From: a virus
Lineage: Duplodnaviria > Heunggongvirae > Uroviricota > Caudoviricetes
Reading direction: 5' to 3' (one strand)
IMG/VR virus record: IMGVR_UViG_2737471849_000007
Length of the DNA: 22,608 nucleotides
The translations under genes and the position numbers were made by a program. Positions 1 through 22,608 of this stretch are shown piece by piece (the stretch's first letter is position 1; every line of letters begins with the position of its first letter). The notes below the pieces were generated by a model. The model searched no databases and was not told where the DNA came from. It was given only the letters and a program-made list of their open reading frames with translations.

Positions 1-459
1 CGCTTCAACGATATGTCCGTTGAATGTTGCCATGTCTTCCTGCAACAATTCCTGTGCGCTAATAACCATATCAACGGTGATGTTTTCACATGTGTCGAAC
101 TTAACCATGACAGCGTTCTGTACTTCAGGGGCCAGCTTGTCAAAAGTGACGTTCATCGGATCGGATTCAGTCTCAACCGGGACAAAAGAAGCAGACTCCT
201 CATCCCAGCGGTTTTCCTGCATATATTCAGCATCCCATGAATCGAGGGCAGGGCGGGGTATACCAGGTTTATCCTCGCAGACAATAAATTTATAAGCGCA
301 GTCCTGAGCAGCCGGATAATGTTCCAGGAATTGCCAGTGAAATTTTGCTCGAGCACGGCGTTCGTCGCCAGCTTCAATGGCTGTGGCTACAGCCACAGCG
401 CCTTCTTCCCTTGTTGCCAGTTCGTCAGGAATAGCGGCGCAAATAAAGACTTTACTCAT
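1..459 (-). CDS. ydfE: Prophage protein YdfE-like, N-terminal 153 codons (3' end beyond window)
   Basis: Minus-strand ORF from ATG (rc of 457-459), open to position 1 with no stop; GAGG about 10 nt upstream; translation begins MSKVFICAAIPDELATREEG. Not in the ORF track because no stop lies in the window. Symbol from memory of K-12 gene order. Confidence 0.55.
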   Translation of the reverse strand, partial: MSKVFICAAIPDELATREEGAVAVATAIEAGDERRARAKFHWQFLEHYPAAQDCAYKFIVCEDKPGIPRPALDSWDAEYMQENRWDEESASFVPVETESDPMNVTFDKLAPEVQNAVMVKFDTCENITVDMVISAQELLQEDMATFNGHIVEA

Positions 460-552
460 TTTGTTTTAACCTCATGACAGATTTAAGGATGAACAAATCC
501 CTGCCATTGCTGGCATATAAGAATGAAACCGGATATTTATTACGGAACTGTT

Positions 553-744
553 TTAAAGACCTGCCGGGATTTCGATATTATCCTGGTGAATAACTTTATC
601 GACCGGGTAACAGTTACCGGGAATTTTCTGTTCGGTTGCTGCAGTCATACACTCCTGCATTGTCCTGTGAACACTGACTGCAATATCAACTGGCACTCCG
701 GAAACAAGAAAAACTGTCAGAACAAGCGCAAATGCTGAATTCAT
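553..744 (-). CDS. ydfD: Prophage small protein YdfD (63 aa)
   Basis: Internal ATG of track ORF 553..798 gives 63 aa (MNSAFALVLTVFLVSG..., hydrophobic N-terminus); start overlaps the dicB stop (ATGA); length and position match remembered ydfD. Confidence 0.75.
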   Translation of the reverse strand: MNSAFALVLTVFLVSGVPVDIAVSVHRTMQECMTAATEQKIPGNCYPVDKVIHQDNIEIPAGL

Positions 745-929
745 TGTGCACATCCTTTTGGCATCAGACGTAAACGAGCCAGCATTGAAACAATGCATAT
801 TTTATTTAATAGCTCCCGTTCTTGTTTTCTCTTGTTAATGGCATCTTCAGTAAATACAGGGTTACTGATAGTGACACCAATTTCAAAACAACCTTCAGAC
901 GTATTAACGTTTGGTAATAACGTTTTCAT
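741..929 (-). CDS. dicB: Cell division inhibitor DicB (62 aa)
   Basis: 62-aa ORF MKTLLPNVNTSEGCFEIGVTISNPVF... inside track ORF 741..1034; immediately downstream of the DicF sequence, last gene of the ydfABC-dicF-dicB operon. Confidence 0.88.
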   Translation of the reverse strand: MKTLLPNVNTSEGCFEIGVTISNPVFTEDAINKRKQERELLNKICIVSMLARLRLMPKGCAQ

Positions 930-1098
930 TATCGCGCCCTCAACAATGAGTTTTGTGATGCGGTGCCTGGTGCCTCCAGGTGACGTTAACCAGTTAACAA
1001 TTAACGCCGGATACAGAGAATCCACCCATAACACTGTTTTTGGTTTTAACTGTTCCGCGTGCGCTCAGCCGCATTCACCACATCACAAAATTCACTTT

Positions 1099-1156
1099 AA
1101 AAAGGGCGGCAGAGCAGTCACGGAGTAAAACTGATACCGCCAAACGTCACCAGAAA
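1099..1156 (-). ncRNA. dicF: DicF small regulatory RNA (antisense inhibitor of ftsZ translation)
   Basis: Reverse complement of 1099-1156 reads TTTCTGGTGACGTTTGGCGGTATCAGTTTTACTCCGTGACTGCTCTGCCGCCCTTTTT, matching remembered DicF and ending in a T-run; lies between ydfC and dicB. Ends approximate to a few nt. Confidence 0.85.
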
Positions 1157-1496
1157 ATTGATAACAGAGGGCGTTGCAGCGGGGTTGTCACTTAAGCGTA
1201 TGGTCAACCTGACAACCCGGTGTCCTCAACGGGGAAGGAATAACCCCGCCATACTTACCGCCGCGCCATTTCGCGGGTTGCCACAACCGGAAGCGCACGG
1301 TCGACGAAAATTTAACGACAGGCTATCTATGAACCAGCTACCTCGCCGTGCGCTTTCGCGTTATGGTCTGACTTTTCAGGGAAATATCCTTTCAGTAAAC
1401 TGTCAGTGCCGGATGCTCACCCGTGTCCGGCGCACGCACTCCACCTCACCCGTGGAGAACTCCTTAATTACCAACCTTAGCTTCGTTGGTTAGCTA

Positions 1497-1715
1497 TTAA
1501 CGCGGGTATGTAATCATTCTGGCAATGCTTAATGCCGCTGCTTTTTCCAGATTGGTGATATCCTGCTCCAGAGAGAACAGATTTTCAGCCTGCTTAGCCC
1601 TGGCTTCATTAGCCCATTTCAGATCCTGCGCTGCATTAATTTTCTGGTGCATCCACTCATAAAGTTCATCATCGGTATAGTCTGGCGCGATGATAACGGG
1701 TTCTCGTTTCTGCAT
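1497..1715 (-). CDS. ydfC: Prophage protein YdfC (72 aa)
   Basis: Track ORF of 72 aa, position in dicB operon between ydfB and dicF. Confidence 0.75.
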   Translation of the reverse strand: MQKREPVIIAPDYTDDELYEWMHQKINAAQDLKWANEARAKQAENLFSLEQDITNLEKAAALSIARMITYPR

Positions 1716-1744
1716 ACTGATTCCTTGCGGTGCTGTTTCGCTTA

Positions 1745-1873
1745 TCAGCCGTTAGATTTTGCCGAACTGGAAAGCGCCTGTTTAAATTCGCTGAAGCTGA
1801 GAGCTTCTTCGCCTTCGGCAAGGCCTTCGAAGTATTCTTCGTAAGCCTTTTCCATGATTGTGTCGAAATCCAT
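1745..1873 (-). CDS. ydfB: Prophage small acidic protein YdfB (42 aa)
   Basis: Hand translation of minus strand from ATG (rc 1871-1873): MDFDTIMEKAYEEYFEGLAEGEEALSFSEFKQALSSSAKSNG, stop TGA; below the 60-aa track cutoff. Confidence 0.7.
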   Translation of the reverse strand: MDFDTIMEKAYEEYFEGLAEGEEALSFSEFKQALSSSAKSNG

Positions 1874-1874
1874 A

Positions 1875-2030
1875 TCACCCACCTGAATTTCTTTCCAGCC
1901 AGCGACGCGCTCCAGATTCGGTTTTAAACGTTTTGCTTTTGGTATACGTCATTGCGGTGAACGTGCCGTCCTGGTTTGGAAACACGCCGTACACCAGAGA
2001 TTCGTTGTTGCCAAGATCGATAGTATCCAT
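1875..2030 (-). CDS. ydfA: Prophage protein YdfA (51 aa)
   Basis: Internal ATG (rc 2028-2030) of track ORF 1875..2084 gives 51 aa MDTIDLGNNESLVYGV...; first gene of the dicB operon. Confidence 0.72.
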   Translation of the reverse strand: MDTIDLGNNESLVYGVFPNQDGTFTAMTYTKSKTFKTESGARRWLERNSGG

Positions 2031-2144
2031 GCTGACCTCATTTCCCCTTAACGCCGGGGTAGCGGAACTGTTTGCTGAGAACACCGTGCGGTGTCTTGAT
2101 GGAAAATAATTTAGAATAACCTAACATAAGAGGCAAGTGTTTTT

Positions 2145-2164
2145 TGTTAGATTGATCTAACAAA
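2145..2164. promoter_or_regulatory. DicA-type operator palindrome in the dicB-operon promoter region
   Basis: Perfect inverted repeat TTGTTAGA-ttga-TCTAACAA between dicA 3' end and ydfA start; same half-site as the palindrome at 2656-2673; a weaker copy TTAGAataacCTAACA at 2111-2126. Confidence 0.6.
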
Positions 2165-2198
2165 AAGGGTGGGCGCAACTAATCACTTGAAAAGAATG

Positions 2199-2606
2199 TT
2201 ATTTTATTGATTTATTTTTACGCGCTTTAAGCATTTCTTCGAAGAGTTTGTTGAAGTTTTCTACTCTTGCGCGCATTTCAGACAGCAAGGCTTCCTGCTC
2301 GGAAGATGGAAGAGCATCGAATAATTCGATCAATTCTTTGTGGTTGGGAGTTAGCTCTGTTTCCACATGAAGTTCTTGTGCAGGCACTGGTGCCTTGTCT
2401 TCGTCACCAAACATTAGCCATGTAGGTGAGCACTTCAGAGCATCCGCTAAAGCAAACAATCGTTTTCCGACTGGCTGGGTTTCGTCTCTTTCCCATTGTG
2501 AAATTGTGACGTGAGCAACTCCAGCGAGGCGCGCGGCTTCTCGTTGTGTTAAGCGTAATTCTTTTCGTCGCGCCAGAACTCGCTGGCCCAGGGTTCTTGT
2601 ATCCAT
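2199..2606 (-). CDS. dicA: HTH (XRE-family) repressor DicA, 135 aa
   Basis: Track ORF of 135 aa with HTH segment LRLTQREAARLAGVAHVTISQWE; divergent from dicC with an operator palindrome between them. Confidence 0.9.
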   Translation of the reverse strand: MDTRTLGQRVLARRKELRLTQREAARLAGVAHVTISQWERDETQPVGKRLFALADALKCSPTWLMFGDEDKAPVPAQELHVETELTPNHKELIELFDALPSSEQEALLSEMRARVENFNKLFEEMLKARKNKSIK

Positions 2607-2655
2607 AGTTAGGTAATTCTAATTTTTCTTGACTTAGGTATCCCGCGCACAATAA

Positions 2656-2673
2656 TGTTAGAAAAGTCTAACA
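2656..2673. promoter_or_regulatory. Operator palindrome in dicA-dicC divergent promoter region
   Basis: Perfect inverted repeat TGTTAGA-aaag-TCTAACA between the dicA start (2606) and dicC start (2684). Confidence 0.6.
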
Positions 2674-2683
2674 AGAGGGGGAT

Positions 2684-2914
2684 TTGATGCTTAAAGTTGA
2701 CGCAATTACTTTTTTTGGCAGCAAAACAAAGCTTGCCAATGCCGCAGGAGTGAGGCTGGCAAGTGTTGCTGCTTGGGGGATACTGGTTCCTGAAGGTCGC
2801 GCGATGCGTCTACAGGAGGCATCTGGCGGGGAGCTTCAGTATGATCCCAAAGTTTATGATGAATATCGTAAGACGAAGCGGGCGGGGCGGTTGAACAATG
2901 AAAATCACTCCTGA
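2684..2914 (+). CDS. dicC: Cro-like regulator DicC (76 aa)
   Basis: Track ORF of 76 aa, divergent from dicA; length and position match remembered dicC. Confidence 0.85.
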   Translation: MMLKVDAITFFGSKTKLANAAGVRLASVAAWGILVPEGRAMRLQEASGGELQYDPKVYDEYRKTKRAGRLNNENHS

Positions 2915-3419
2915 ACAGGCTCGTGAGGCTCTGGATGCCTGGATATGTCGACCAGGAATGACACAGGAGCAGGCGACGATATTAATCACTGAAGCATTCT
3001 GGGCTTTGAAAGAGCGCCCGAACATCGATGTTCAGCGTGTCACAGATGAAGGTGGCGCGGTTGATCAGCGAGCGCTTGGTGTTAATCGAGTGAAGATATT
3101 CGAACGCTGGAAGGCTATCGACACCAGGGATAAGCGTGAAAAGTTCACGGCGCTAGTGCCTGCGATTATGGAGGCTATCCGGATTAGTGATTTCAGGTTG
3201 TATCGTGAAATTACTGACGGAAAAAGCATCACGTGCATGATCGCCGGGTTAAACAAAGAATATGGCGATGTGGTGGAGTCCGGACTGCTTTTTGCTGATC
3301 CTGCCGTAGTGGATCGTGAAACTGACGAACTTATAGAAAAAGCAATTGCTTTCAAGCTTGCGTATCGACAGCAATACCAACAAAAAGCTGGATGGAATTA
3401 TGAGCCTTCTTTTTGCTGA
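2898..3419 (+). CDS. Hypothetical early-region protein (173 aa), in the cII/YdaT-like position
   Basis: ATG-initiated track ORF overlapping the dicC stop by 17 nt; sequence is protein-like; function not recognised. Confidence 0.5.
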   Translation: MKITPEQAREALDAWICRPGMTQEQATILITEAFWALKERPNIDVQRVTDEGGAVDQRALGVNRVKIFERWKAIDTRDKREKFTALVPAIMEAIRISDFRLYREITDGKSITCMIAGLNKEYGDVVESGLLFADPAVVDRETDELIEKAIAFKLAYRQQYQQKAGWNYEPSFC

Positions 3420-4365
3420 ACGCCCACTGGTTATAAACACGCAGCTGGCAATGAAAATTGGCTTAAACGAAGCCATTGTTTTGCAACAACTGCACTACTG
3501 GTTGAGAGATACCAACTCCGGCATGGAATGTGATGGTGTTCGCTGGATTTATAACACAACGGAACAATGGCTGGAACAGTTCCCATTCTGGTCAGAGTCA
3601 ACGTTAAAGCGCGCGTTTGCAAGTCTGAAAACGCTGGGGCTTTTGCGTTGTGAAAAGCTCAATAAATCAAAGTGCGATATGACCAATTTCTACACGATCA
3701 ACTATGGGAGCGAGCTTTTAGATGGTGGCAAATTGAGCGAATCCATCGGTTCAAAATGCGCCGCTCCATCAGGTCAAAATGACACGATGGAAGAGGTCAA
3801 AATGAAACGCTCCATTGATTCAAAACGACCCAATGTCATCGGGTCAAAATGGCCTGATGATCTTACAGAGAATACAACAGAGATTACTACAGAGAATAAA
3901 AACACTTTTCGTCCGGAAGCTTCGCAACCGGACCCGCAGACGACTGAACAGGATTTTTTAACCCGGAACTCCGACGCGGTTGTGTTTAGTGCGAAAAAAC
4001 GCCAGTGGGGTAGCAGGGAGGATTTGGCGTGTGCGCAGTGGATCTGGGGGCGGATCGTGGGTCTCTACGAACAGGCAGCCAGTGATGATGGCGAGATCAT
4101 GCGACCAAAAGAGCCTAACTGGACTGCCTGGGCCAATGACGTGCGCACAATGCGGATGCTGGATGGCAGAAGCCACAGACAAATTTGCGAAATGTTTGGT
4201 CGGGTTCAGCGAGATCCATTCTGGGTAAAAAACATCATGAGCCCGTCAAAGCTCCGCGAAAAATGGGACGAACTGGTCATCCGCCTGGGACGTTCACCTG
4301 TACAGCGTTGTGTTAATCATATTTCTGAACCGGATACAGAAATTCCGCCTGGTTTCAGAGGATAA
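3400..4365 (+). CDS. Phage replication initiator / replisome organiser (lambda O-like; about 322 aa from ATG 3400)
   Basis: Track ORF 3346..4365; likely start is ATG at 3400 (MSLLFAERPLVINTQLAMKIGLNEAIVLQQLHYWL...). N-terminal winged-helix-like domain, central low-complexity linker carrying DNA iterons, C-terminal domain resembling DnaT-like/phage conserved C-terminus (DPFWVKNIMSPSKLREKWDEL). Family assignment by pattern recognition only. Confidence 0.6.
   Translation: MSLLFAERPLVINTQLAMKIGLNEAIVLQQLHYWLRDTNSGMECDGVRWIYNTTEQWLEQFPFWSESTLKRAFASLKTLGLLRCEKLNKSKCDMTNFYTINYGSELLDGGKLSESIGSKCAAPSGQNDTMEEVKMKRSIDSKRPNVIGSKWPDDLTENTTEITTENKNTFRPEASQPDPQTTEQDFLTRNSDAVVFSAKKRQWGSREDLACAQWIWGRIVGLYEQAASDDGEIMRPKEPNWTAWANDVRTMRMLDGRSHRQICEMFGRVQRDPFWVKNIMSPSKLREKWDELVIRLGRSPVQRCVNHISEPDTEIPPGFRG
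3741..3900. repeat. Putative replication origin: five iterons at 23-bp spacing plus three AT-rich 12-bp repeats
   Basis: Core (G)GTCAAAATG / GTTCAAAATG / ATTCAAAACG ends at 3758, 3781, 3804, 3827, 3851, each preceded by a CCATC-like motif; then ACAGAGAATA / ACAGAGATTA / ACAGAGAATA at 3865, 3877, 3889. A 23-bp period is not a multiple of 3, so the repeat is DNA-level. Confidence 0.6.
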
Positions 4366-4405: not shown

Positions 4406-4828
4406 GTGGCAAAAGTTTTTACACAAGAAGAGCGGGAAAAAATTAAATGGCAGGTGGTGGAACTCGTGCACCAGAGCGGCCGTGAGACGTTACGGCAACT
4501 GGAAGCTAAAACAGGTGCGACTAGATATCTGATGAGCGTTCTTGCCAGAGAGCTGGTAGCCAGTGGCGATGTATACAACTCCGGCTACGGGTTATTCCCC
4601 TCTGAACAGGCGCGTAAGGACTGGCAAAACGCCCGCAAAAAACTCTCGAGGGCAAAGGTGAAGAAACCTGCTGTGGTTGATCCGGACCTTATCTGGTCAT
4701 CACCTGACGGAGAAATACGTCGCTACGACAGTCGCCTAAACATAATCTGTCGCGAGTGCCGGAAGAGCGAAGTTATGCAGCGCATACTGGCTTTCTATCA
4801 GGGTAATTTTCAGGACGTGGCGCAGTGA
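4406..4828 (+). CDS. Hypothetical protein (140 aa), possibly winged-helix; GTG start
   Basis: Track ORF; GTG at 4406 with AAGGGGGA upstream; stop overlaps the next gene's GTG start (GTGA). Confidence 0.5.
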   Translation: MAKVFTQEEREKIKWQVVELVHQSGRETLRQLEAKTGATRYLMSVLARELVASGDVYNSGYGLFPSEQARKDWQNARKKLSRAKVKKPAVVDPDLIWSSPDGEIRRYDSRLNIICRECRKSEVMQRILAFYQGNFQDVAQ

Positions 4829-5181
4829 GTGCACCGGCAACCATTCTTGATATGTGCTGTGGCAGCCGCATGTTCTGGTTCGATAAGTCTGACGAACGGG
4901 CGATATTTAGCGATATCAGAAAAGAAGGATACACATTACGCAATGGGAGACGCTTGATTATCAGCCCTGACATTATCGCAGATTTTCGTGCATTATCATT
5001 TGCAGACGCATCTTTTTCGATGGTTGTATTAGACCCTCCGCATCTTGAGCGTGTTGGTGATAACGCCTGGATGGGAAAGAAATATGGACGGCTGAATAAA
5101 GATGCCTGGCGTGATGATTTGCGACAGAGATTTAAAGAAGCTTTTCGGGTGTTGAGGCCGCACGGCGTTCTGATTTTTTAA
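4825..5181 (+). CDS. SAM-dependent DNA methyltransferase-like protein (118 aa as encoded; possibly truncated by in-frame TAA)
   Basis: Motif I-like ILDMCCGSR and motif IV-like VVLDPPH, then RVLRPHGVLIF; the frame stays open 29 codons past TAA (5179-5181) to TAA at 5269-5271. Confidence 0.5.
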   Translation: MSAPATILDMCCGSRMFWFDKSDERAIFSDIRKEGYTLRNGRRLIISPDIIADFRALSFADASFSMVVLDPPHLERVGDNAWMGKKYGRLNKDAWRDDLRQRFKEAFRVLRPHGVLIF

Positions 5182-5791
5182 TGGAATGAAACGCAAATAC
5201 CGGTAAGCCAGATTCTGGCACTGACAGATAGAAAGCCTGTTATCTGTCAACGAACAGGGAAAAAACGATAAAACCCACTGGATTATTTTTATGAAAGAGG
5301 CATCCAGTGAGTAGATTCGTAAGGTTACAGATACGTATATCTGAATAATTAAATTCAGTTCTGTAAATAAAACTTAATCCTTAACCGGATGGATTTCTGC
5401 ACCCTCAGAACATCAGGAGGCCGCCCGAAAGGGCGGTAGTGAAATGCGAAAGTTCAAAATTATTATTGAAACGGGAATAGCTGGTGGAGATTTTGAGGAT
5501 GTATTCGAAGTGGACGATGACGCAACACCTGATGAAATTCATGACGGAGCATAAGAAATTTTCTTTAACTACTGCAATTACTCATACCACGAAATAAAAG
5601 ACGATGAGGAAGAACAAAGTGGCTGATTTTTGTTCAGCTAAATATAACATCAGTTTTGAAGAGCGGGATGAACTATTAATGGACTATGGTGAGTTACGCG
5701 GTGGAAGTGCTGCTGATGTCGAATCCTAGCGTGATGACTATGAAGCGGGAAAAACTCCGGTCGAAGCATATTGTGATGAGTGGGGCGATGA

Positions 5792-6079
5792 ATGAGCGAG
5801 ATTAATTATCAGGAAGGGCATGAAACGGCGGGGCAAGCAAAACCAGTGACATGGCGATATCGCTACGTGAAAAAAGGCGTTACGGACTTTCAGGGGAAGT
5901 AGTGGTCTGGTGACTGGAAATATGTACCGAAAAAAGAGGATTGTAACGACAGGCCGAACTATCAAATTCAGGCCTTATTCACTGCCTCACCAGTCCCGGT
6001 TACATCAGAAGAATTGGTTAAAGCTGTGCACTTTTATGAACAACTAAAACGCGAAAATCCACCAACATCCGGCAACTAG
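5792..6079 (+). pseudogene. Small prophage ORF interrupted by in-frame TAG (36 codons + amber + 58 codons)
   Basis: ATG 5792 (ATGA-coupled to the preceding frame): MSEINYQEGHETAGQAKPVTWRYRYVKKGVTDFQGK, TAG at 5900-5902, then WSGDWKYVPKKEDCNDRPNYQIQALFTASPVPVTSEELVKAVHFYEQLKRENPPTSGN to TAG 6077-6079. Confidence 0.35.
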
Positions 6080-6333
6080 ATTAATGGGTTAACTATGTCG
6101 GTTAAACGACCAGCCAACTGAAAAAGCGGAAACCTGATTACAGGTTGCCAGATAAGGCAATGAGCTACCTGGCGCGGAACGGACTGATAAGTATGGGGAA
6201 TGTTTTACGATGAACCTTTAGACTAAAGAGTTTGTAACGCTATGTAAGTGATTTTTTCTGGTTTAGATATTTATATGTCCGGCCAAATTGAGGTGTGTTT
6301 AAATGTAATTGCACATTGATTGTAGGAGGAATA

Positions 6334-6513: not shown

Positions 6514-6847
6514 ATACAGCGAACTCCATTGGTTTAGTTGGATATTTACTGTGCTGGACAAAAACGGTTTGCGGGGAAATCTTAGTTAAGTAGAATGACT
6601 GCGGGTGCTTGAGGCTATCTGCCTCGGGCACGAACACCAACGGCAGGTAGAGAAAAGCCCCAGTTAACATTACGCGTCCTGCAAGACGCTTAACATTAAT
6701 CTGAGGCCAATTTCATGCCAGACACATGTAGGTTAGCCTCTTACGTGCCGAAAGGCAAGGAGAAGCAGGCTATTGTTAACACCAAGCTGTAATGTCCCCT
6801 TTGAACCATTCTAAAATGTCCCCAGACAATTCTCTGGGGGATTTTTC

Positions 6848-6994
6848 ATGACCAAAGAAACTGTTACGATGAGTCATAAGGAACTCCACCGACTTCAGAT
6901 TATTCAGGAGTCAATTAATCGACATATTACTCAGGAACAAGCTGCGGCACGCATTGGCATTTCTATTCGGCAGGTTAAACGTCTGGTGCCATGA
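6848..6994 (+). pseudogene. HTH-domain ORF resembling the N-terminus of an IS transposase (48 aa), apparent remnant
   Basis: MTKETVTMSHKELHRLQIIQESINRHITQEQAAARIGISIRQVKRLVP then stop; downstream frames do not continue a transposase-like sequence; preceded by hairpin CCCCAGA-caattc-TCTGGGG (6819-6838). Family assignment from memory, uncertain. Confidence 0.3.
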
Positions 6995-12467: not shown

Positions 12468-12767
12468 AAAAATTCCTTAATACTGATAACTTGGCGCACT
12501 ATACACACGTTCCTGAAGAAAGCTATAGTTTTTTGATGGGGTTGAAGATGGCTGGATGTCTAAAATAAACATTGCTTCATATGTTCAACTATGCGTTAAT
12601 GATTGCGTCGGTTTGAAGAACAGACGATATACGAAGTAGTTTACTAAAGCAGTTCTCATTTCAGGTGTTATTCACTTATTCCTTCTTTGAGTCTCTCCAA
12701 TTAAGTACGAAGTCGTTTCTGTTATGCAAACCATTTATGCCGAAAGGCTCAAGTTAAGGAATGTAGA

Positions 12768-12983
12768 ATGTCAAATAAAATGACTGGTTTAGTAAAATGG
12801 TTTAACGCTGATAAAGGTTTCGGCTTTATTTCTCCTGTTGATGGTAGTAAAGATGTGTTTGTGCATTTTTCTGCGATTCAGAATGATAATTATCGAACCT
12901 TATTTGAAGGTCAAAAGGTTACCTTCTCTATAGAGAGTGGTGCTAAAGGTCCTGCAGCAGCAAATGTCATCATTACTGATTAA
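12768..12983 (+). CDS. cspB: Cold-shock protein CspB (71 aa)
   Basis: Track [41 protein letters not shown]... with canonical RNP1/RNP2 motifs; AAGGAATG RBS; long AT-rich 5' leader. Confidence 0.92.
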
Positions 12984-13267
12984 AATTCATCGCTCGTCTG
13001 TATACGATAACGAAGAAGGCTGATGCCTGAGTAGAGATACGGACAGAGTAGTGAATATTGGATCTCTTTAATAAAAAGTAAGGAGGTCCAATACATGAAA
13101 CAATGGCTAGCATATTTGGCAAAATCTTAATCAGGAAAAGTATGCTAACCATTGTGGTGAAGTGCAGGTTTGCTGCATGAATAGTTTTACAGCAGAAGCT
13201 AACTGCTGGCATGGCAAAACAAAGTGCGTAAGTGGATGACTCCCACAAAAAGCACCACAATCTCAAA

Positions 13268-13287
13268 CCCGCTCAGGCGGGTTTTTT
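13268..13287. terminator. Probable bidirectional intrinsic terminator between cspB and the convergent zinc-ribbon ORF
   Basis: CCCGC-tcag-GCGGG hairpin followed by TTTTTT on the plus strand; T-rich on the other side too. Confidence 0.55.
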
Positions 13288-13346
13288 ATTATCTGCTTTA
13301 AATATATTATTAAAATATAAAAAATACTTGTTACTAATAAAATCAA

Positions 13347-13517
13347 TCAGGCTACAGCTTTAAGATTTGTCTGGAATACTTTGTTGCAATGAGGGCAGAT
13401 CAAAAGGGCACCTTTTTGTACTCTTGAAAAACTGTGTTCTGACTCTTGGGTGCAGTTTGGGCAGGAACATTTAACGAGATAATTACGGCGTGATTTTGAG
13501 TTTTTACGTTCTGACAT
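13347..13517 (-). CDS. Small zinc-ribbon protein (56 aa from ATG rc 13515-13517)
   Basis: Internal ATG of track ORF 13347..13568 with AGGAAAA about 9 nt upstream; MSERKNSKSRRNYLVKCSCPNCTQESEHSFSRVQKGALLICPHCNKVFQTNLKAVA has CxCxxC...CxxC. May correspond to a K-12 small protein (possibly ynfU), not asserted. Confidence 0.5.
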   Translation of the reverse strand: MSERKNSKSRRNYLVKCSCPNCTQESEHSFSRVQKGALLICPHCNKVFQTNLKAVA

Positions 13518-13736
13518 AGGCTTTTCCTGTATAAATGGCCGTATACAGTACACTAAATATGAAAACATTTCTCGTATTATTATTTTATATATGACTTTCT
13601 TTCAAAATAATTACCCACATTTTTAATGTGTATGTTTTTTTAGCGCCGTTGAGAACAACGTGTGCTGTCAAAACTACCCCGTAGACTCCGATCTTTTCAA
13701 ACATATTGCACCATCCGTGTACATCGGGGTGAGGAT

Positions 13737-13952
13737 ATGAAATCAATGGATAAGTTAACAACAGGTGTTGCCTATGGCACATCGGCGGGTAATGCTGGTT
13801 TCTGGGCATTGCAGTTACTCGATAAAGTAACTCCGTCACAGTGGGCTGCAATCGGTGTGCTGGGTAGCCTGGTTTTTGGCCTGCTGACGTATCTGACAAA
13901 TCTTTATTTCAAGATTAAAGAAGACAGGCGTAAGGCTGCGAGAGGAGAGTAA
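13737..13952 (+). CDS. essQ: Class II holin/pinholin (phage-21 S-like), 71 aa, dual-start motif
   Basis: Internal ATG of track ORF 13662..13952; N-terminus MKSMDK gives Met1/Met4 dual start; two TM segments; followed by a SAR endolysin. Confidence 0.82.
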
Positions 13953-19398: not shown

Positions 19399-19989
19399 TT
19401 ATATGTCAGGTGTCTGAAGTTTTGCTTTGGCTCTTAAAATGGTTTGCCGCGAGGTTTTGAATTCCCGGGCAATGGCACTTATACTTACACCTGACTTAAT
19501 TCGTTCGAATACCACCTGTTTCTGTTCTTCATTTAACACAGGTGGTCGACCAAAACGTTTCCCTGCGCCGCGGGCTCTTACTATCCCGGAATGAGTGCGT
19601 TCAAGTAAAAGGTCTCGTTCAAATTCAGCGACTGCTGAAATTACGTGCATCATCATTTTTCCTGTTGGACTGGTCAGGTCAATGCCCCCCAATGCTAAGC
19701 AATGCACTCTGATACCTGTTTCGGTCAGTTGTTCCACTGTTTTCCTGATATCCATTGCATTACAACCAAGGCGATCCAGTTTTGTCACAATCAATTGATC
19801 ACCACATTTCAGGCGAGCAAGCAACCGGTTAAAACCAGGACGCTCACTGGTTGCTGCTGAGCCGCTAATGTGTTCTTCGATTATTTGCTGAGGTTTGATT
19901 TTAAAACCTGCACTTTCGATTTCCCGGCGTTGATTTTCGATGGTCTGATCCAGCGTTGATATCCGACAGTAAGCAAAAATTCGAGACAT
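19399..19989 (-). CDS. pinQ: Serine-recombinase DNA invertase Pin (Hin/Gin/Cin family), 196 aa
   Basis: Track [25 protein letters not shown]... with catalytic Ser motif and C-terminal HTH. Confidence 0.92.
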
Positions 19990-21324: not shown

Positions 21325-22608
21325 ATGGATTTCCAGTTATATTCGCTCGGCGCAGCGTTGGTGTTTCATGAAATATTTTTTCCTGAATCATCAACGGCAA
21401 TGGCGTTAATTCTGGCAATGGGAACCTACGGTGCAGGTTATGTCGCGCGTATTGTCGGAGCATTTATTTTCGGCAAAATGGGCGACAGAATAGGGCGTAA
21501 AAAAGTGCTCTTTATTACCATCACCATGATGGGGATCTGTACCACCTTAATTGGTGTGTTACCGACCTATGCACAGATTGGTGTTTTTGCCCCCATCTTG
21601 CTGGTGACGCTGCGTATTATTCAGGGGTTGGGTGCAGGTGCGGAAATTTCCGGTGCCGGTACGATGCTGGCGGAATATGCACCAAAAGGTAAGCGCGGAA
21701 TTATCTCCTCATTTGTAGCTATGGGAACTAACTGCGGAACCTTGAGCGCAACGGCAATCTGGGCCTTTATGTTCTTCATTCTCAGTAAAGAGGAACTGCT
21801 GGCGTGGGGATGGCGTATACCGTTCCTGGCGAGCGTTGTCGTGATGGTCTTTGCTATCTGGTTACGTATGAATCTGAAAGAAAGCCCGGTCTTTGAGAAG
21901 GTTAATGACAGCAACCAACCCACAGCAAAACCTGCACCTGCTGGTAGCATGTTCCAGAGCAAATCCTTCTGGCTGGCAACAGGGCTGCGTTTTGGTCAGG
22001 CGGGTAACTCCGGGTTAATTCAGACTTTCCTTGCAGGCTATTTAGTGCAGACGTTATTGTTTAACAAAGCAATTCCAACAGATGCATTGATGATTAGTTC
22101 GATTCTCGGCTTTATGACCATTCCGTTCCTTGGTTGGTTATCCGATAAAATTGGTCGCCGGATCCCGTATATTATTATGAATACCTCCGCGATTGTGCTG
22201 GCATGGCCAATGCTTTCTATCATTGTAGATAAAAGCTATGCCCCGAGCACCATTATGGTTGCACTGATTGTGATTCATAACTGTGCGGTGCTGGGATTAT
22301 TTGCTCTGGAAAACATTACCATGGCAGAAATGTTCGGCTGTAAAAACCGCTTTACCCGGATGGCTATTTCTAAAGAAATTGGTGGTCTTATCGCTTCCGG
22401 TTTTGGTCCTATCCTGGCGGGTATTTTCTGCACCATGACGGAATCCTGGTATCCGATCGCCATTATGATCATGGCATATTCAGTAATTGGTTTAATCTCT
22501 GCGCTGAAAATGCCAGAGGTGAAAGACCGTGATTTAAGTGCGCTGGAAGACGCTGCGGAAGATCAACCGCGTGTTGTAAGAGCTGCGCAACCTTCCAGAA
22601 GTCTGTAA
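21325..22608 (+). CDS. ydfJ: MFS metabolite:H+ symporter YdfJ, N-terminally truncated by the prophage insertion
   Basis: Track ORF of 427 aa ending at the window end; the MFS loop motif GKMGDRIGRKKVL sits only about 45 aa from the start, so TM1 is missing; many TM helices follow. Confidence 0.8.
   Translation: MDFQLYSLGAALVFHEIFFPESSTAMALILAMGTYGAGYVARIVGAFIFGKMGDRIGRKKVLFITITMMGICTTLIGVLPTYAQIGVFAPILLVTLRIIQGLGAGAEISGAGTMLAEYAPKGKRGIISSFVAMGTNCGTLSATAIWAFMFFILSKEELLAWGWRIPFLASVVVMVFAIWLRMNLKESPVFEKVNDSNQPTAKPAPAGSMFQSKSFWLATGLRFGQAGNSGLIQTFLAGYLVQTLLFNKAIPTDALMISSILGFMTIPFLGWLSDKIGRRIPYIIMNTSAIVLAWPMLSIIVDKSYAPSTIMVALIVIHNCAVLGLFALENITMAEMFGCKNRFTRMAISKEIGGLIASGFGPILAGIFCTMTESWYPIAIMIMAYSVIGLISALKMPEVKDRDLSALEDAAEDQPRVVRAAQPSRSL

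Follow-up and report, generated by a model that had tools for sequence, protein, structure and literature searches.

Gene content of the window

The window, the whole stretch of 22,608 nucleotides analysed here (IMG/VR record IMGVR_UViG_2737471849_000007), carries the DicF small RNA, dicA/dicC-like genes, flxA, relBE-hokD and csp genes (Table 1), a gene content that marks it as a cryptic prophage of E. coli, lambdoid and of the Qin type. DicF and dicB/ydfABC lie on one side of the immunity genes, with flxA, relBE-hokD, the csp genes and ydfJ on the other. Towards the right end of the window, lysis genes give way to tail-fibre remnants, beyond which lie a pin-type invertase and then ydfJ, a gene of the host. 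Apart from these tail-fibre remnants there are no head or tail genes in the window, and this copy of the prophage is therefore cryptic. An Rfam scan placed two cspA-type leaders and IS009 in the window and detected no RNA family within 5444-6213.

Qin, a ‘grounded’ prophage that is common and carries many mutations, has been reported from roughly one in two E. coli and Shigella genomes (PMC6379469). The window shares with the Qin prophages of K-12 and other strains the insertion neighbourhood, DicF, dicB-ydfABC, the dicA/dicC-type regulators, ydfW, flxA, ydfV, relBE, hokD, rem, ydfU, ydfT, cspB/F/I, the lysis cassette, the pin-type invertase and ydfJ, and, like them, it is in a general state of decay and holds both IS insertions and pseudogenes (PMC6379469).

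Over positions 5400-6100 the window matches E. coli isolate 07-4299 at every nucleotide (100% identity). The left part of the prophage in that isolate runs int-xis-exo-ydfD-dicB-ydfCBA, a DicA-type HTH repressor, a Cro/CI regulator, ydaT and replication genes, continuing with DUF977, a methyltransferase pseudogene, a DUF7167 pseudogene, the pseudogene of ORF C (hypothetical) and ISEsa1, and then with ydfW, flxA, ydfV, relBE, hokD, rem, ydfU, ydfT, csp genes and the lysis cassette. The window is without about 1 kb of the ISEsa1-type element of 07-4299 (window 6986-6989 against 12753-13790 of the 07-4299 sequence, L094), and beyond 17520 the two are fully unlike, the window having tail-fibre remnants, invertase and ydfJ instead of terminase-to-tail genes. 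As far as the two sequences tell, this comparison shows that the same prophage has undergone different deletion histories. The large terminase gene of 07-4299 (L094 25281-27206, outside the window) is a pseudogene by its PGAP annotation, which gives an internal stop as the sole defect, and even this complete-looking Qin copy may be defective.

We take it that the dicC-ydfW segment has been lost from the Qin prophage of K-12, so that the pseudogenes under study are absent from that strain; the strain of the window keeps the segment, with ydaT, a replication gene, DUF977, the methyltransferase and ORFs A, B and C.

Table 1. Positions of the features discussed, counted from the first nucleotide of the window.
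Feature	Position	Strand	Remarks
DicF sRNA	1104-1155	-	Rfam
SAM-dependent DNA methyltransferase pseudogene	4825..5313	+	phrog_954, E 8e-74, match across the stop
ORF A, DUF7167-family	5444..5626	+	60 aa when intact; AAA->TAA at 5552-5554
ORF B	5619..5795	+	58 aa when intact; phrog_519; annotated homologues WP_000753058/60
ORF C	5792..6213	+	141 aa in fully intact form; phrog_660
A6 run inside ORF C	5870..5875	+	slippage-variable: A5 in L006, A8 in L003-L005
sok RNA	6603-6774		Rfam
pin-type invertase	19399-19989	-	
ydfJ, host transporter gene	21325-22608		

Interrupted reading frames

A sequence-only reading of this DNA had reported in-frame stops at 5552 (TAA), 5727 (TAG) and 5900 (TAG), each with an open frame beyond it, and reading and translating the region places all three there. 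ORF A starts at ATG 5444 and runs for 36 codons to TAA 5552-5554, after which 23 codons are open before TGA 5624-5626. The internal TAG of ORF B (5727-5729) is followed by 21 open codons and then by TGA 5793-5795, which the start of ORF C (ATG 5792) overlaps as ATGA; ORF C has 36 codons before TAG 5900-5902 and 58 open codons from there to TAG 6077-6079. The segments beyond the stops had been said to look like protein, and clear homologues of them do exist. With Lys restored at codon 37, ORF A matches the Pfam DUF7167 profile (PF23768) over 1-60/60 (E 1.9e-13, 50.7 bits, against a gathering threshold of 24.4), and it matches phrog_1997 over 1-57/57; no papers on DUF7167 were found in the published literature. 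ORF C matches phrog_660 over residues 2-108, across its stop, and the methyltransferase matches phrog_954 over residues 4-147, again across its stop.

The lesions are more varied than the nonsense-only disruption, free of frameshifts, that had been described. Alignment of the methyltransferase to the intact 160-aa gene of a Klebsiella phage (L012) and to the copy of an Stx2c phage (L013) revealed a stop, TAA 5179-5181, where both have AAA (Lys), and a +1 insertion near 5257 that shifts the conserved C-terminus KTHWIIFMKEASSE (‘KTHWIIF...’) into frame +1. ORF C carries CAG->TAG at 5900-5902 and again at 6077-6079, and relative to the intact 141-aa form it is without four nucleotides (CTGG) at 6109/6110; its short form would end at TGA 6119-6121 and its long form at TGA 6211-6213, in frame +2. 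The TAG at 6077, which had been taken for the natural end of ORF C, is thus a second premature amber: an intact relative (contig L095; ORF A 60 aa, ORF B 58 aa, ORF C 141 aa) has CAG at both amber sites, reads on, and has the four extra bases at 6109/6110. An NCBI protein of 138 aa (P0033) has Gln at the 6077 site and shares with the window the shorter ‘VKRPAD’ ending, and given this protein the 4-nt difference may not be a lesion but a variant that the gene tolerates. Sister Qin copies have further 1-nt indels at 5257, 5692 and 5876.

ORF B had been given a start at ATG 5604. Its natural start is 5619, an ATG in all 53-58 non-Qin homologues and a GTG here; ATG 5604 is found only in the Qin lineage, where it arose by a GAA->GAT change. 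In addition to this ATG->GTG change and to TGG->TAG at 5727-5729, ORF B has nine further lineage-specific missense changes, including Trp16->Arg at a Trp common to all homologues.

Alleles in related prophages

A 701-nt stretch was matched in 2,486 of 5,426 complete E. coli genomes (511 records at an identity of at least 99%) and also in phage records. We tabulated alleles at 91 loci, including 80 further loci from IMG/VR, and defined the Qin clade as the loci at an identity of at least 98.5%. All 35-36 loci of this clade have TAA 5552, GTG 5619, TAG 5727, TAG 5900 and TAG 6077. The 53-58 other loci have AAA, ATG and TGG at 5552, 5619 and 5727, with the single exception of L009, which has the ORF B amber; at 5552, AAA is present in every covering non-Qin locus (about 55), as against TAA throughout the Qin clade. 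The 5900 site is mostly CAG (Gln) in other copies, and otherwise CCG or CTG. No homologue ends at the stop positions, where homologues have sense codons instead, which bears out the view, put forward as the simplest one from the sequence alone, that these are nonsense-mutated prophage pseudogenes.

The annotated relatives, at 88-93% nucleotide identity, have three translationally coupled intact genes of 60 aa (WP_001224662), 58 aa (WP_000753058/60) and 104-119 aa. Intact trios in inducible or predicted lambdoid prophages (vB_EcoS-689R5, ON470583; GTEN_97, WP_001224662/WP_000753058/WP_001529162; L095) have the same gene order as the window and the same overlapping junctions (ATGGCTGA and ATGA) at that level of identity, but where the window has its stops and its GTG start they have AAA, ATG, TGG and CAG/CCG/CTG, and they are under purifying selection. 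The phage PhiR42_1 (PV340562; 48.7 kb, a ‘complete genome’ in GenBank) has the same stops as the window, and its record suggests that some relatives of the window element may still be complete phages; no papers on PhiR42 were found in the published literature.

It is already known from RefSeq that ORF A, ORF C and the methyltransferase are pseudogenes. In NZ_CP027462.1, PGAP pseudogenes C6W75_RS11095, C6W75_RS26625 and C6W75_RS26050 are 100% identical in sequence to the window, with ORF A described as ‘DUF7167 family protein, internal stop’ and ORF C and the methyltransferase as ‘frameshifted; internal stop’; unlike the present analysis, these entries do not give the history of the lesions. 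ORF B is without PGAP annotation in the records of the Qin clade.

The alleles of ORF C have a history of their own. Several loci (L026, L050, L051, L060-64 and L096) have ORFs A and B intact together with both ORF C ambers and the same 4-nt gap, and three others (L003-5) have the 5900 amber and an AA insertion in ORF C, again with A and B intact. The ORF C stops are limited to one allele family, which also has indels. The distribution of these alleles shows ORF C to have been dead already, on an allele circulating among lambdoid prophages, before the module was assembled. Since ORF C lesions are present in prophages with intact A and B, the three stops did not arise together, and by the same allele comparison the lesions specific to the Qin lineage are shown to be only those of A, B and the methyltransferase.

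For the sense codons at the ORF C sites we relied on DNA-level alleles, on L095 and on the NCBI protein P0033. A further protein, P0004 (109 aa), has Gln at both amber sites but was not counted as evidence for sense codons, since TAG stands at both sites in the contig that it comes from (L096). P0004 (L096 310-639) mimics an intact homologue and seems, on comparison with its contig, to be a translation of TAG as Gln by a gene caller.

The ORF B amber outside the Qin clade is found in phage vB_EcoM-606R7 (L009 3220-3406; ON470580), with TGG->TAG at the same codon on a haplotype that is otherwise ‘intact-type’. The flanking differences are not those expected if one conversion tract had been copied from the Qin allele, and the amber of L009 is either an independent recurrence or the product of fine-scale mosaicism.

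Mutation counts and selective constraint

Nonsense changes in adjacent genes had been thought unusual. Between 4 and 6% of the possible single-base substitutions in these ORFs yield stops, and the 19 fixed Qin-specific changes in A and B comprise 13 missense, 4 synonymous and 2 stop changes; the probability of at least two stops among 19 changes is 0.21-0.28, so the clustering in A and B is not unusual, the stops of ORF C having their separate, older history. With ORF C lumped in there are 4 stops among about 27 changes (P about 0.03-0.08), a count that is unjustified because the history of C is independent.

Intact homologues have pN/pS ratios of 0.05-0.1 for A and B and of about 0.25 for C, and on these ratios they are under purifying selection. 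Pairwise pN/pS between the window and intact copies proved non-discriminating, dominated as it is by old divergence under selection, and constraint was judged by lineage-specific counts instead. On the Qin branch, A and B have accumulated 15 missense or stop changes to 4 synonymous, near the neutral 3:1, versus 25:37 in the polymorphism of intact homologues (Fisher p = 0.004). Singletons within the Qin clade amount to about 10-11 nonsynonymous changes, 3-6 synonymous changes and 3 indels. On these counts, the Qin-specific changes look selectively neutral. Downstream of the stops we found no purifying selection, with frameshifts in C and the methyltransferase and with neutral-like private changes and indels, power being low for A and B.

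The two Qin subclades are separated by differences at 11 coding sites, of which 4 are nonsynonymous and 7 synonymous, a synonymous excess with P about 0.003-0.012. Non-Qin homologues share the alternative allele at five or more of the 7 synonymous sites. The 4 nonsynonymous alleles were all seen in Qin only, and some haplotypes are recombinant. Given this allele sharing and these haplotypes, continuing constraint is the less favoured reading of the excess, and it is likelier, at low power, that the synonymous differences represent shared or imported variation that had been filtered by selection.

Decay of an early-operon module

We are confident that the methyltransferase and ORFs A, B and C are four consecutive early-operon accessory genes that have lost their function by ordinary mutational decay in a Qin-type prophage. 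Full-length homologues have sense codons at the stop positions, profiles match across the stops, and constraint is relaxed, with the synonymous excess between the subclades as a caveat. The striking three-stop pattern is a composite, in which an older dead C allele is joined by two lineage-specific hits, in A and in B, in a cryptic prophage no longer under selection. In the window copy the damage to A and to B is limited to a single stop per gene, with no indels, so that taken alone these two genes show shallow decay.

The allele distribution shows how this decay proceeded. ORF C was dead by the time the module was assembled. In the Qin lineage, A gained AAA->TAA; B gained TGG->TAG, the ATG->GTG start and many missense changes; and the methyltransferase gained AAA->TAA and a +1 insertion. 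These lesions were fixed before the Qin clade diversified, and every sampled copy has them. Decay is ongoing, in that single strains have missense changes and 1-nt indels of their own. The frames would remain open past the stops only because the time has been too short for more hits. Full-length protein is probably not made, and the genes would normally be silent under the DicA-type repressor.

The finding matters little beyond annotation hygiene. On the practical side, ORF B is a pseudogene that still lacks annotation in the RefSeq records of the Qin clade, and P0004, a public ‘protein’ that renders TAG as Gln on the same dead ORF C allele, could mislead homology checks.

Alternative explanations

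We allow a small chance that decay is not the whole account, and that there has been either repeated selection silencing costly early genes during domestication or low-level readthrough of A and B giving functional small proteins. In the first of these, the stops would have been favoured as knock-outs of early-operon products that are toxic or costly to the host, a case of domestication rather than neutral drift. Several lambdoid early proteins are toxic, among them DicB, YdfD and KilR; five stops fall in about 1.4 kb if the methyltransferase and both C ambers are counted; the same TGG->TAG change in B is seen on a different haplotype, in L009; and a dead C is carried by several prophages of unrelated background. 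The alleles thus carry a hint of selected silencing in the recurrence of the B amber and the spread of the dead C allele. However, the number of stops in A and B fits the neutral expectation calculated above, and both genes are intact in all sampled non-Qin copies but L009 and are there under purifying selection, at the low pN/pS given above, and therefore are not generally harmful. The promoter upstream of the operon is under the control of a repressor, and genes unrelated to the operon have been lost from the element as well. Selected knock-out is accordingly very unlikely in our estimation.

Suppressor-dependent expression, which the sequence-only reading had raised as an alternative to pseudogenes, or programmed readthrough more generally, would have full-length A, B and C still made and functional by means of a host or phage suppressor tRNA or of leaky termination. 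The frames do stay open past each stop, the stops are fixed in every sampled copy of the Qin clade, and the synonymous excess between the two subclades could be read as constraint on the full-length proteins. Known cases of programmed readthrough or suppression in phage genes, such as Q-beta A1 and laboratory amber mutants, likewise have an in-frame stop beyond which the frame stays open and looks like protein; in programmed readthrough, however, the stop is kept across relatives and the extension is selected, whereas the stops of the window are derived and clade-restricted, and are accompanied by frameshifts and neutral-like substitutions. The A stop is confined to the Qin clade and the B stop to that clade and L009, the 53-58 homologous loci otherwise being free of both, and neither is conserved across diverged homologues. 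In addition, decoding TAA as well as TAG would call for a suppressor of the ochre type, and a tRNA scan covering the 22.6-kb window found no tRNA gene, suppressor or other, within it. Readthrough cannot mend the frameshifts of the methyltransferase or of the long form of C, nor does it accord with the extra indels of sister copies or with the neutral-like changes specific to the lineage in A and B (15:4 versus 25:37), and the subclade excess is accounted for by alleles shared with other prophages. We regard such expression as extremely improbable.

Finally, the short pre-stop ORFs (36, 36-41 and 36 aa) can be dismissed as natural products, and the stops as sequencing or assembly errors: a 36-aa fragment of ORF A is annotated as a CDS in some phage records (PhiR42_1), but residues beyond the stops are required by the DUF7167 and PHROG profiles and homologues continue past the stop positions, and identical stops recur in the 35-36 independently assembled loci of the clade, with 511 complete-genome records at or above 99% over the 701 nt.

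Further observations

The two Qin-specific ochres, at 5179-5181 and 5552-5554, lie 373 nt apart and are both AAA->TAA, that is, A-to-T transversions. At the methyltransferase ochre a T5A3 junction of homopolymers has become T6A2, a change that would be consistent with misincorporation of the slippage type. The ambers, by contrast, are all G:C-to-A:T transitions.

The non-coding spacer between the methyltransferase remnant and ORF A (5314-5443) shows the densest variation within the Qin clade, with 8 sites in 130 nt versus about 2% elsewhere. At its end, shortly before the start of ORF A, stands a GC-rich sequence that resembles a hairpin, GGCCGCCCGAAAGGGCGG (5419-5436).

One of the relatives, L010 (PP818812.1, ‘Actinobacillus phage vB_Apl-pPE4’), is attributed to Actinobacillus pleuropneumoniae. 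It has about 90% nucleotide identity to this E. coli region, and its gene order (Ead/Ea22, DUF7167, B, C, hok) is that of the early region of E. coli lambdoid phages; on these grounds, the assignment to an Actinobacillus host looks doubtful.

A truncated hok/sok locus lies further downstream, at window 6603-6848, in which the hok reading frame is gone and the antisense/leader region is kept. Related prophages (L004, L008) are homologous to it at their hokD locus as far as 6773, exactly at the hok ATG, where the homology stops, and an ISEsa1-type remnant, annotated by PGAP in the identical genome, follows the truncated locus from 6848, its left boundary being approximate.
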